A DNA stretch of 64,000 nucleotides from Octopus sinensis (lineage: Eukaryota). Below the pieces are notes generated by a model. It was not told the origin of the DNA. It saw nothing but the letters and a program-made list of their open reading frames with translations, and did not search any database. The translations under genes were made by a program, and so were the position numbers. Where the stretch lies: positions 40,672,001 through 40,736,000 of the forward strand of contig NC_043012.1 in the NCBI RefSeq assembly GCF_006345805.1. Direction: 5' to 3'. Positions 26,746 through 64,000 of this stretch are shown here, piece by piece (the first letter of the stretch is position 1; each line of letters starts with the position of its first letter).

Positions 26746-27962
26746 TTTATTACACACGTGAGTGAGAACACTTGGAGATATTTTTGGTATCTAACATATG
26801 TCAGATACTGCGAGCGCTGCTTCTGATTGGTCAATCCAGGGTGATGACCCGAGGCCACGGTGACGGCACTACTTTTGTCATTCATAAGTTACAACTAAAC
26901 TTCATTCATTACTTTCATGAGCAGGTAGAATGTTGCCATGTAATTAAACAAACATACTATCTTTTTTATACCAGATATCACTTGAAGTCATATACACATA
27001 AAATATAAACATTTCTGGTGGTAATTCAATTTTTTGTTGCCAAAAAAATCACAACATATTTCGTCTGCTCGTCGATACTCTTGCAGTGCAGGTAGATCTA
27101 TCAACAAGATGGCTACTGTTGTCGATATCAAGGTGAATGATTTTGTTAAGATTGATGGTAAAGATGGGGGAAGAGTGTTATCCGTTGTTCAACTCTTGGA
27201 ACATACAGAATGTTCAAGTGAAGATCAATACTGGCCAAGTTCGACATGTTGCTGGATACAGGTTAACAAAGGTACCTGAAACAGTGTCATCGACGAGTGG
27301 ATTGTCATCGAACCCTAGATCTAACATCCCTGATGAGGTGTACAACGAACTTCTACGTGACAATTTCTTTGATGAGAGCAATAATGAACTTGAATTTCAA
27401 CCGAGGTATGATCATTCTGGAATAGACAAATTCGTTCAAGGTAATCAAAATAAAAACACTCTTTGGAAAACAAACAATGATGTTAAACAATTGTTAGCTT
27501 TCATGGCGACACGCGTCCAATTGAATCTATCGACAAAAGTGAACTTTGTGACATTCTGTGTATTTTCTTTATCTCGTTTTTCTTGAACGTGAACTTATGT
27601 TAACAAAATGTTAAACAGTCATCCGTTATCAGTCATTTCACCTGAAAACTTAGTGCTATAAAGTCGGACTATCTTCCTGCAGCATGACATCTTTTACAGT
27701 TACACATTGTGACATCACTGACGTGAAATCAAGCTGTATTCATGCACGCTTCAACACGATGTGAAGAATTGTTATTGGGTTAATAAAAATATGGTCGTTT
27801 ATTCGTGTGTAATAAATAAAATACCAAACTCATTCCCTATGGATACCGTATTTATTACAACTCGTGGCTTGTAAACGTATCTAACTCGCTTTCGCTCGTT
27901 AGATACGTTTACAAGCCACGAGTTGTAATAAATACGGTATCCATAGGGAATGAGTTGGTATT
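26746..27962 (+). mobile_element. Internally deleted Crypton-like (tyrosine recombinase, DUF3504/QRICH1-type) element with terminal hairpin
   Basis: ORF remnant IDKFVQGNQNKNTLWKTNNDVKQLLAFM; 13-bp inverted repeat tttattacacacg (26746) / cgtgtgtaataaa (27804); about 143-bp palindrome 27820-27962 with loop tcgctttcgctc. Confidence 0.6.
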
Positions 27963-27968
27963 CTCTAT

Positions 27969-29759
27969 TTGTTAAACTGTAATTATGTTTGTGTCTGGCG
28001 TTGTGCTGAAACTGTTTTTCAACATTATGGAGTTGTCACTTAGTGAAGAGAACTCGCCAACTAATGCGTTGATGGATATGTCTGTGTTTGTAACAGGTGA
28101 AGAAGGAAGAATCCAAAAAGTAGCAACCCAGAAAATAAACTTTGCAGAAGCAGCCAGGAAGAAGGAAAGTGCAATTAATATTGAAATTGAGAATCTAAGT
28201 GCTACATGAACTGCGTTTTCAAAGTGTGTCACGAGACCAGACATGTTTTTTTCTTTATGGCAGATTGAAACATAAGGGAGGAATGCATACACCAGTCGAT
28301 TTCTCCCAGGACCCACAATATTTAGTGACCTGTGGAGGGCATATTCACATATTCCAGAGATAGAGGGATACAATTGTCGACAGACCGGTGAACCACAGCG
28401 TCAAGTTTGGTAACTCCATAGATAACACACATACCCAACAAATAGAAAGTACTTGGGTGTGTTTGAAACAGGCTAACAAGCAACGGTGGGGTACACACCG
28501 TTCTATGATTGACTCGTATCCTTGCAAATTCATGTGGTGGTGGTGCAGACACGAGAAAACTGACCTTTGGGAGAAATTGCTGGAAAGCACTGGAAACTTC
28601 CAAGAAAAGTGCATCAATAATTGTTTTTTGACACAAAGAGATAAACCAGTGTGTTTCCTCTGCTCAGAATATAAGGGTCTCACAGATTTTGTAAATGTTT
28701 GCACATTTTGGGTAATTTTAGCCAATCAATAACCAGACGTATTGGTGTCTGTCTCCATAGTAACAAGCCATATAGTCTCTTCAAACTAAGACAACCAAAT
28801 ATGAACCATTTCGTTGCACGTTAGTTGGATTATTCGGTTATTCTGCAAACGTTTTCTTTGGATTGCTATTGTTGTGAAAGTAAGCTGCTCTCTATTTTAT
28901 GTTGTTGATACGATCTGTTTGTTGCCTTTTGTAAAGCAAATTGTTATTAATTCCCCCCTGGAGGGGAATTATTATTGTTAAACTGTAATTATGTTTGTGT
29001 CTGGCTTTTGTGCTGAAACTGTTTTCAACATTATGGAGTTGTCACTTAGTGAAGAGAACTCGCCAACTAATGCGTTGATGGATATGCCTGTGTTTGTAAC
29101 AGTGGTGAAGAAGGAAGAATCCAAAAAGTAGCAACCAGAAGAAATTAAACTTTGCAGAAGCAGCCGGAAGAAGGAAAGTGCAATTAATATTGAAATTGAG
29201 AATCTAAGTGCTACATGAACTGCGTTTTCAAAGTGTGTCACGAGACCAGACATGTTTTTTCTTTATGGCAGATGATGAAACATAAGGGAGGAATGCATAC
29301 ACCAGTCGATTTCTCCCAGGAACCACAATATTTAGTGACCTGTGGAGGGCATATTCACATATTCAGACCGGTGAACCACAGCGTCAAGTTTGGTAACTCC
29401 ATAGATAACACACATACCCAACAAATAGAAAGTACTTGGGCCAGTGTTAAACGGGCAATAAACGAAGCTGCAAGGTCCATGGTTCACTCATATCTGAGAG
29501 TGTATGTGGTGCTTGAGATTGTAATTCGTATAAGAAAACCCTAGGGCAGGGCTTCTCAACAGAAGTGCAGGGGAAAATTTTTGTAATGAAAAGTCATTTT
29601 TCACCTCATTTCTGTTAATTTAATATGTTTTTCTTTATGGCAGATTGAAACATAAGGGAGGAGTGCATACACCAGTCGATTTCTCCCAGGACCCACAATA
29701 TTTAGTGACCTGTGGAGGGCATATTCACATATTCCAGAGATAGAGGGATACAATTTTCG
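27969..29759 (+). repeat. Merlin-transposase-derived complex tandem repeat, block 1
   Basis: Translates through frameshifts as PGxTIFSDLWRAYSHI...VNHSVKF...HTQQIESTW...RWGTHRSMIDSY..KFMW (IS1595/Merlin DDE C-terminal half); near-identical to blocks 2-6. Confidence 0.9.
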
Positions 29760-62332: not shown

Positions 62333-62920
62333 CTAGTACTTCGAGGACAACCTAATACAGGCAAAAGTATGATCGCTCGTAGTATTGCTGACATGTTCAC
62401 ACATGTCAGTACTATTCAGGGAACAAGTAGCTTCCCATTTCAAAATTTAATTAACGTCGAAATCGGATCAATAGAAGAACCGAATTTTAAATTAGAAACT
62501 CTACAAACTCTTAAGAAACTGGCAGAGGATCAGATAATACATCGCACACCACTTAGTATCACATCGAATAATATATTTGATCAAAACGCTCCTCCTGCCG
62601 AAAGATATGCTTTCATAACACGTTATACAGAATACGTTTTTAATGCAGCCGCTCCTTTCTTAAAACACATAAAAAAGAAAATTAATCCATTTGTATGAAA
62701 TATTTTAGGAGTATGACCGACTCAGAAATGAAAAAAGAAGGCGAAACAGACTTCGGTCTCCGTCTCCTTGTGGAGGCGGGGAAACTGATGGAAGCGGAGA
62801 CAGAAAAAAATCCACAACTCCGACGACTCAGACAAAGAAAACGACATCACATGGGAAACACCAAAGTGGCATAAATATAGTAAAGTAATGGAGTCGCAAT
62901 CCGAAGCGCCATCTGCTGAG
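62333..62920 (+). pseudogene. NS1: Second parvovirus-like NS1 fragment (SF3 helicase to C-terminus)
   Basis: LVLRGQPNTGKSMIARSIADMFTHVSTIQGTSSFPFQNLINVEIGSIEEPNF...RTPLSITSNN. Confidence 0.88.
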
Positions 62921-62999
62921 CCGTTAAAAAAAATTTTAATTTTCCCTTGATTATATAAATAGTAATATCGAGGGGAAGTAACAGGAATAAAAGCAAGCA

Positions 63000-64000
63000 T
63001 TCAGGTAGGACTCCACAATGAGAGGTCTTATCGGAATGCTCTCCCCGTGCCTCTTGCAGCATCTAAAAACACTGAGAAGACCGCGGATTCTGCTACCCAT
63101 GAAGTTATTGCCATTGGGCTACCAGAAGACATGGCTGATCTTCAGGCATTTGCTGCCAACTCAGCCAAAGACCTAGGCTGCGTTCCCCCAACGGGTGCTC
63201 TCCGCCTTGGACGACCTGGCCCAAAACCCAGGCTCATCAAGCTGTCTTTTTCAGACCACGCTGAGGCAACCTCATACCATCTGGCCTCAGTTAAAGCTGG
63301 GCGTGAAAATCGAACTACCTTCCGAACACGTCCAGGCTTACCACCCGATGTACGTCCGAAGCTACGTGTAGCGACTTCCCTGAACCGGAACTCAGCTCTG
63401 CAAGAAAGTTTCAGTCTTCGTGAGGATGGACAAACCTGGAGATTTGTTAAGACTGGTGAAACGTGGAAGAGAGATACCAGCTGGTCTGAGTGCTCTCTAC
63501 CCACAATAACTGAAAATGGAAAAAAAACTACAGCAACTCTGGGAAACTAAACCAGAAAAACCTGCCATCCTCTACACACCATCATAAACTGCAAGCAGGG
63601 TACAAATTGTTGTCCTTAAATGCTCGCAGTTTATGCAACAAAATATATCTGTTCAACTCCTACGTCAGAAGTATTGACCCTGACTTCATCACATTCACGG
63701 AAACATGGGCACATTCCTTACTCTGTGATGGGGTTGTCAACATTACTGGCTACAACCTTTTCCGCAAGGATCGCATTAACCGCCGTGGTGGTGGTGTGAT
63801 GGTCTACGTTTGTTCAAATTTTTCGGTAATTCCTTGACCTGATTTGAACGAATCACAAGAAGTTTTTTTCTGTGACATACGTATGACCATGTCAACACTC
63901 CTGCTTGGCATTGTTTATCGTCCCCCAAATTACCATCAAAACACACAGCTTTGCGATATCCTCCGAGCTGCTGCCAGGAAAACAGCCACTTGTTAACTTT
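63000..64000 (+). mobile_element. CR1/L2-type LINE: ORF1 end plus ORF2 APE start (runs off the window)
   Basis: ORF1 VIAIGLPE...LRLGRPGPKPRLIKLSF; ORF2 LSLNARSLCNK, FTETW, GYNLFRKDR..RRGGGVMVYV, LGIVYRPP. Confidence 0.88.

Follow-up and report, generated by a model that had tools for sequence, protein, structure and literature searches.

Single-strand source loci of PIWI-interacting RNAs (piRNAs) that lie directly behind host genes are the closest described counterparts of a mosaic of closely packed transposon and virus pieces (here, the block) found in Octopus sinensis. Most of the block lies in a 64,000-nucleotide stretch of contig NC_043012.1 (the window, C16:40672001-40736000, in a genome of 2.72 Gb); positions are those of the window, and window-equivalent positions continue the count past its end. 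In mosquitoes, core piRNA clusters are read-through loci that run in a single direction directly behind an expressed gene and contain non-retroviral viral elements in antisense (10.1101/2022.08.22.504762). In mammalian piC-DoGs, transposon fragments are densely packed shortly past the end of a host gene, in antisense to it, and extend over tens of kb and, in the top ones, over more than 50 kb (PMC11615739). The flamenco and flam-like loci show a strong strand bias in one long block, with a long terminal repeat (LTR) bias to which only Gypsy contributes; flamenco itself is driven by a promoter of its own (PMC10643416). Among molluscs, the clusters of the slug Arion are mostly single-strand, including one in which minus-strand piRNAs lie over plus-strand transposon fragments (PMC11615739), and Gypsy and DNA transposons are over-represented in those of Lymnaea (PMC6128900, which covers Lymnaea and oyster). 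In flies, single antisense insertions in host 3' untranslated regions act as piRNA sources, and transcription of the host gene over the element suffices (PMC13226689).

By analogy with the mosquito core clusters and the mammalian piC-DoGs, the octopus block is probably a read-through, single-strand piRNA source locus. It resembles the mosquito clusters in its single direction, its start directly behind an upstream gene and its antisense viral elements, but it belongs to a mollusc, its relics come from a parvovirus-like single-stranded DNA (ssDNA) virus, and its read-through and piRNAs are putative. It shares with piC-DoGs the crowding of antisense fragments shortly past a host gene and over tens of kb, whereas the mammalian loci contain mainly endogenous retroviruses and LINE-1 and the octopus block draws on at least nine groups of elements, including many DNA transposons. 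A strong strand bias of fragments across one long block is also found in flamenco and flam-like loci, but the octopus bias covers all classes; Gypsy accounts for 3/25 units, one of its three pieces being reversed, so that the block is neither Gypsy-enriched nor does it owe its bias to Gypsy. The nearest counterpart among molluscs is the slug cluster in which piRNAs of the minus strand lie over plus-strand fragments; in the parts of the sources considered the slug, Lymnaea and oyster clusters are not tied to host-gene read-through and none is from a cephalopod. The fly 3' untranslated region insertions offer a possible starting route for such a block, although they are single insertions compared with a block of 51 kb.

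Orientation of the fragments

The character of the sequence shifts at position 26746. The first ~26 kb are rich in microsatellites and short interspersed elements (SINEs), and from there on simple repeats are nearly gone and the mosaic of fragments fills the remainder of the window (26746..64000, plus strand). Every stop-to-stop open reading frame (ORF) of at least 60 amino acids beyond 26 kb was scanned with Pfam on both strands. Matches to transposon or virus families (Helitron/PIF1, RVT_1, RNase H, Parvo_NS1, Exo_endo_phos, DDE_1 and IS1595) were found for 22/102 plus-strand ORFs, several of them scoring below the curated cut-off, and for 0/112 minus-strand ORFs. The block includes six copies of a deleted Merlin-type transposon unit (the scaffold), which were counted as one event because matches above 90% to this unit are confined to this locus (40 of 718 candidates scored). 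Counted in this manner, 16 of the 17 independent fragments in the window lie on the plus strand (p=2.7e-4), and leaving out the scaffold gives 15/16 (p=5.2e-4). The recount bears out the first-pass annotation, made from the sequence of the window, which had reported 15 of 16 fragments on the plus strand (about 5e-4) with a long interspersed element (LINE) piece at 48865-49850 as the only exception. The same annotation described the SINEs of the first 26 kb as mixed in orientation, in agreement with the 7 plus-strand and 8 minus-strand copies counted in 1-26700. SINE density is 0.2 per 10 kb in the block, or one SINE per 51 kb, versus 3.5-5.7 per 10 kb in the flanks. Several of the trapped families (Crypton, Helitron-1, the Tx1-type LINE, Gypsy-2 and pogo-2) have dispersed copies elsewhere, with ~90-98% identity and on both strands.

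The block runs ~13.5 kb past the end of the window, to ~77.6 kb window-equivalent, and totals ~51 kb. Seven more independent plus-strand units are found in this extension (L001, L002:1-3600), namely three Penelope-like elements and one piggyBac, one Merlin, one mariner-like and one hAT-like element, the last two names being presumed from motifs. The extension also holds a 99% duplicate of pogo-2, which was left uncounted, and a second minus-strand exception, a Gypsy piece encoding RNase H and integrase. An orientation census over the extended locus, which had been suggested as a check, shows persistence of the bias rather than balance: with duplicates counted once, 23/25 fragments are on the plus strand (p=1.9e-5), and 21/23 when the two units named by motif only are removed. 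These p-values are optimistic because the window was chosen after the fact, and the sister loci described below serve as the independent check.

The host gene upstream of the block

Past the block lie two ORFs with matches to the solved structure of DONSON. Mapping of the Octopus vulgaris protein, to which the exons are 87-100% identical, places ten exons of this gene on the minus strand, from window-equivalent 100,201 to the TGA at 79,624 (L004:6201 to L002:5624); the segment L002:4256-4474, tried as the last DONSON exon, is not an exon. The last transposon ORF of the block is located ~2.5 kb behind the DONSON stop codon. Since DONSON is on the minus strand, read-through RNA would carry 23 of the 25 fragments in antisense. 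The fragments thus follow directly on a host gene of opposite orientation, and the two parvovirus-like pieces, both on the plus strand and opposite DONSON, place viral elements in antisense as well. The interpretation first given to the bias is partly supported. One of its two explanations, a long precursor on the minus strand with its start beyond 64 kb, fits the position and strand of DONSON, and the transcribed strand and the piRNA output are putative.

On the gene strand, the first AATAAA is found 5.9 kb past the DONSON stop and 5.2 kb past the stop of the DNA polymerase eta gene, which precedes one of the sister loci. Among arbitrary 5.5-kb windows, 1/160 lacks AATAAA, arbitrary windows not being gene ends, and the gap behind DONSON is regarded as supporting, not decisive. 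U1 sites show no enrichment on the putative precursor strand (8 versus 8).

Sister loci with parvovirus-like relics

NS1-like relics of parvovirus type are present on seven contigs, with 13 matches (21/21 candidates scored). The six other virus-bearing loci were surveyed with the same tblastn queries and merged hits. At C12:57.46-57.55 Mb, 19 of the 22 merged hits are on the minus strand and 3 on the plus strand; the minus strand also prevails at C14 (nine to none), C10 (seven to one), C5 (three to none) and C1 (five to two), and the plus strand at C27 (five to one). The viral pieces lie on the majority strand at each of the six. Eight arbitrary 50-kb blocks contain 8 fragments per 400 kb, four on each strand, versus 22 per 90 kb and 9 per 40 kb at sister loci, a roughly ten-fold difference in density.

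The C12 locus (C12:57456543-57550000) is a ~90-kb, SINE-poor, one-strand block that contains a close relative of Crypton and tandem arrays of ~85 and 107 bp. It starts 3 kb past the final exon of the plus-strand DNA polymerase eta gene, its fragments are antisense to that gene, and it is a second candidate read-through cluster. An O. vulgaris predicted protein of 608 amino acids (P0002) is a chimeric model in which pieces of Crypton, LINE ORF1, pogo-like and mariner-like elements follow one another with a common orientation, and two of its parts are 99% identical to two fragments of the C12 block, which suggests that this block is common to O. sinensis and O. vulgaris. As in the window, parvovirus-like pieces at C14:52348000-52373000 and C27:15925000-15938000 take turns with Merlin pieces of the same orientation, an arrangement due in part to local duplication. 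Among the matches listed, each match between the octopus block and its sisters spans a single element, which speaks against a transfer of blocks between clusters. A relative of the scaffold at C16:15.1 Mb was also considered as a cluster; it is not a clear one, with five fragments on the plus and two on the minus strand in SINE-rich sequence.

Proposed mechanism and its meaning

Read-through from DONSON on the minus strand would produce one long RNA across the 51-kb block, which would then be cut into antisense piRNAs silencing the families represented in it. Transposable elements and viral DNA may insert as DNA, in either orientation, behind a poorly terminating gene; insertions antisense to the read-through RNA would be retained since they give silencing piRNAs, and sense insertions would be lost. 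Local direct duplication and deletion, of which the Merlin scaffold, the pogo-2 copies and the short snippets at 60630 and 60871 give examples, would trim and shuffle the pieces with their direction unchanged. Piwi-domain genes, among which Argonaute and PIWI are not distinguished, occur in the genome.

Of 24 sequencing runs, none is on record as RNA, and 20 contain the stretch or part of it; four were compared as contigs over the DONSON-side 10 kb. The contigs of run X1 (74 million letters in all; its RNA nature is a guess) cover much of this region, with a depth of ~10-30 in the longest pieces. One of them bridges a Merlin/Gypsy junction and matches it over 612 bases without a single difference; another falls in the stretch that separates the DONSON stop from the nearest transposon. 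Pieces of run X2, with a depth of 2.4-3.5, fall on the last exon of DONSON, behind it and at the block edge. X1 cover is 0.85 for the last coding exon of DONSON and 0 for the intron above, and was not used as evidence.

Several observations weigh against the proposed read-through origin. No single contig joins DONSON to the block in the DONSON-side 10 kb, where the contigs carry no strand; no locus-specific splice joint is found among the 15 listed of 76, all of which are SINE noise; and X1 shows no editing skew that could mark the strand (A>G 32, T>C 31). An ATTAAA is present 1.5 kb past the DONSON stop and 0.4 kb past the polymerase eta stop, and normal termination at these signals is possible. 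The block itself contains 27 AATAAA on the putative precursor (minus) strand and 49 on the other (p=0.015); this depletion is not repeated in the C12 block (observed/expected 1.59) or at C14, and arbitrary blocks are also uneven (489 versus 428, p=0.048). Local duplicates inflate the sister counts, so that C12 drops to ~15 versus 2-4, with Penelope-like exceptions, and the bias at C1 is only five to two. Finally, an upstream co-oriented gene was found at 2/7 virus-bearing loci, and none at C14, C10, C5 and C27 in a partial scan of 146 ORFs that left out C1.

We tentatively extend the reading to the genome as a whole, with somewhat less confidence than it commands for this block: by analogy with Aedes, the octopus may keep a few trap loci that are reached by read-through from housekeeping genes whose poly(A) signals are weak (DONSON and DNA polymerase eta). 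These loci would collect all transposon classes and most parvovirus-like relics in antisense and so serve as a heritable memory against transposons and viruses. Both genes function in DNA replication or repair. If this were true, read-through piRNA clusters would be a strategy common to insects, mammals and molluscs. The two blocks are named candidate piRNA source loci in a cephalopod, with the prediction of minus-strand read-through from DONSON and plus-strand read-through from polymerase eta. Confirmation would bring both read-through clusters and antisense viral trapping to the molluscs and would bear on the origin of such clusters. The surprise is limited, since mosquitoes and mammals are already known to have this architecture. 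A literature search, with supplements and subscription papers outside its reach, found no octopus or cephalopod piRNA cluster and no link between DONSON and piRNAs.

Alternative explanations

Orientation bias of insertions within transcription units is established, and the shared direction could in principle reflect a long minus-strand read-through or non-coding RNA with no piRNA role, from which sense insertions are purged for their poly(A) or splice signals. The lower number of AATAAA on the minus strand of the block fits this explanation. Purging is nevertheless rather unlikely, for it leaves unexplained the roughly ten-fold density of transposon-coding fragments at sister loci, the scarcity of SINEs and the accumulation of viral relics; moreover, the SINEs inside DONSON are divided only into 4 on the plus and 9 on the minus strand (p=0.27).

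Instead of depending on read-through, a single-strand piRNA cluster could start from a separate minus-strand promoter just behind or inside the 3' region of DONSON, in the manner of flamenco, and this would fit the orientation data equally well. Flamenco-like loci carry fragments opposite to transcription (PMC10643416), and the four sister loci at which the partial scan found no upstream gene are readily accommodated. Both loci that do have such a gene begin within ~3 kb of its stop codon, in the predicted direction and with more than 5 kb free of AATAAA, which makes an independent promoter unlikely.

It is very unlikely that the block is transcribed from the plus strand, from both strands or not at all, with a shared direction due to insertion preference or element promoters. 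The contigs over the DONSON-side 10 kb, carrying no strand, are compatible with this explanation, but 99 of the 103 upstream ORFs, taken from the first ~24-26 kb with the exclusion of four across a GA repeat, contain no plus-strand gene or transposon domain. A common insertion preference is difficult to reconcile with a shared direction of LINE, LTR, Helitron, Crypton, DDE and ssDNA virus fragments, which differ in insertion chemistry.

Chance, the amplification of a few founder insertions by duplication, or mis-assembly is a highly improbable source of the pattern and is already largely refuted. The window was indeed chosen after the fact, and local duplication produced the six copies of the scaffold and the two of pogo-2, but in self-BLAST the non-scaffold fragments are not near-identical copies of each other, with the exception of one Merlin pair (92%), and substitutions amount to 1.2-2.3% among the five long scaffold copies. 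Furthermore, the bias recurs on other contigs, the window contains no N bases and an independent run bridges one junction.

The second explanation in the first-pass annotation was a capture mechanism that adds cDNA in one polarity, which may be imagined as integron-like and acting at the Merlin scaffold. The six scaffold copies are local direct duplicates that alternate with foreign blocks; all of their right-hand ends lie in or at the end of the DDE part of the transposase, four copies begin at almost one position on the left, and copies 3 and 6 have a common deletion junction. The two copies of pogo-2 have a common internal deletion. Merlin and viral pieces alternate at C14 and C27 too. Such polar capture is hardly credible, since the six right-hand junctions map to six different positions spread over ~300 bases with no common motif, rather than to one fixed site of a repeated unit as in integrons or CRISPR arrays, the Crypton (26746) and Helitron (30293) retain element 5' ends that mRNA-derived cDNA should lack, several adjoining fragments have no scaffold between them, the bias is present at C12 and C10 without a Merlin match, two fragments are reversed, and no scaffold or multi-element block is common to the sister loci and this locus among the matches listed.

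Composition of the block

The units described below are on the plus strand unless stated otherwise. The left edge of the block, at 26746, is the 5' end of a fragment of Crypton, a tyrosine-recombinase DNA transposon (26746..27583), and most of the 39 other places scored for this query, on both strands, start at query base 1-3. Its identification was made via 27137-27583, a relative of which, with 89% identity, carries PF12012 and PF00589. AATAAA motifs on the minus strand at 26746 and 26015 mark a possible end of a minus-strand RNA at this edge, the one at 26746 belonging to the Crypton end. A long, near-perfect inverted repeat, noted by reading the sequence, is located at 27837-27958, between the Crypton fragment and scaffold copy 1. 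This copy (27969..29759) is a tandem, deleted Merlin/IS1595-type transposase unit with an IS1595 match below the cut-off (E 7e-4). Helitron-1 (30293..33760) comprises a 5' non-coding end and Rep and PIF1 helicase pieces recognized with Pfam, has 40 other scored matches at 90-96%, and contains the sole SINE piece of the block (31263-31332, plus strand).

Scaffold copy 2 (34990..36558), like copies 3 to 6, was delimited by self-BLAST, and is followed by a Helitron-2 Rep fragment (36728..38650) found with Pfam, whose 65% DNA identity to Helitron-1 indicates a different family. Gypsy-1 (38709..40420) consists of an LTR-like 5' part, recognized by reading the sequence, and a reverse transcriptase (RT)/RNase H part (RVT_1 2.5e-29, RT_RNaseH_2 5.9e-11). 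The first parvovirus/densovirus-like endogenous viral element, a broken NS1-type helicase, occupies 40420..42450 (Parvo_NS1 3.2e-11) and is followed by scaffold copy 3 (42476..44269). A tandem repeat of four 127-bp units (44633-45140) precedes an L1/Tx1-type LINE ORF2 with a 3' tail (45138..48860), identified with Pfam and represented elsewhere by near-full copies at 92-94% on both strands.

The only minus-strand unit in the window is the 5' fragment of a LINE with an apurinic/apyrimidinic endonuclease (APE) at 48865..49850. It was recognized by an APE-type motif and tblastn overlap, covering the same endonuclease region as the plus-strand CR1 piece in locus L023 (E 3e-6), and Pfam and Protein Data Bank searches with it gave no match. 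Next come a pogo-1 DDE fragment (51463..51990; DDE_1 4e-4 and motif), a Merlin N-terminal fragment (52061..52300) and a pogo-2 DDE fragment (52396..53055; Pfam), the 99% duplicate of which lies just past the window end. The Merlin N-terminal fragment is 92% identical to L001:5805-6007, which continues into an IS1595 domain. This fragment, the second separate Merlin piece and the CR1/L2 endonuclease described below were named by translated motifs, a weak Pfam match and tblastn overlap. A small element resembling a miniature inverted-repeat transposable element, with 73-bp terminal inverted repeats (92%) and no assignable orientation, lies at 53075-53542.

Two Penelope pieces had been reported on the plus strand. 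One of them, extending from the RT to the GIY-YIG region (53544..54530), is upheld over 53544-54578 by Atlas HTH_animal/GIY-YIG clusters (score 0.95). The other, at 60050-60511, has no Atlas match and retains its strand but not its name: the unit there (60078..60600) is likely a LINE ORF1 fragment, as both relatives examined (L023, L024) have an APE endonuclease next to it on the same strand. Between the two lie the short scaffold copy 4 (54539..54824), Gypsy-2 with gag, protease and RT (55967..57961; DUF7041, RVT_1 1.2e-25), a Merlin-2 DDE fragment (58201..58590; translated motif and tblastn overlap with relatives) and scaffold copy 5 (58598..60077). Scaffold copy 6 (60916..62332) is preceded by short snippets copied from elsewhere in the block (60630-60675 and 60871-60917). 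The second parvovirus-like element (62334..62700; Pfam) has 69-80% DNA identity to the first, and the window closes with the ORF1 end and APE endonuclease of a CR1/L2-type LINE (62966..63990; weak Pfam match, E 0.069).

Unclassified segments of the block, which stand outside the orientation count, are located at 29760-30292, 33760-34990, 44270-44632, 50650-51400 and 54830-55960. In the microsatellite-rich part of the window, a 265-bp inverted repeat (1194-1458 and 1668-1932, 92%) flanks a CATA microsatellite.

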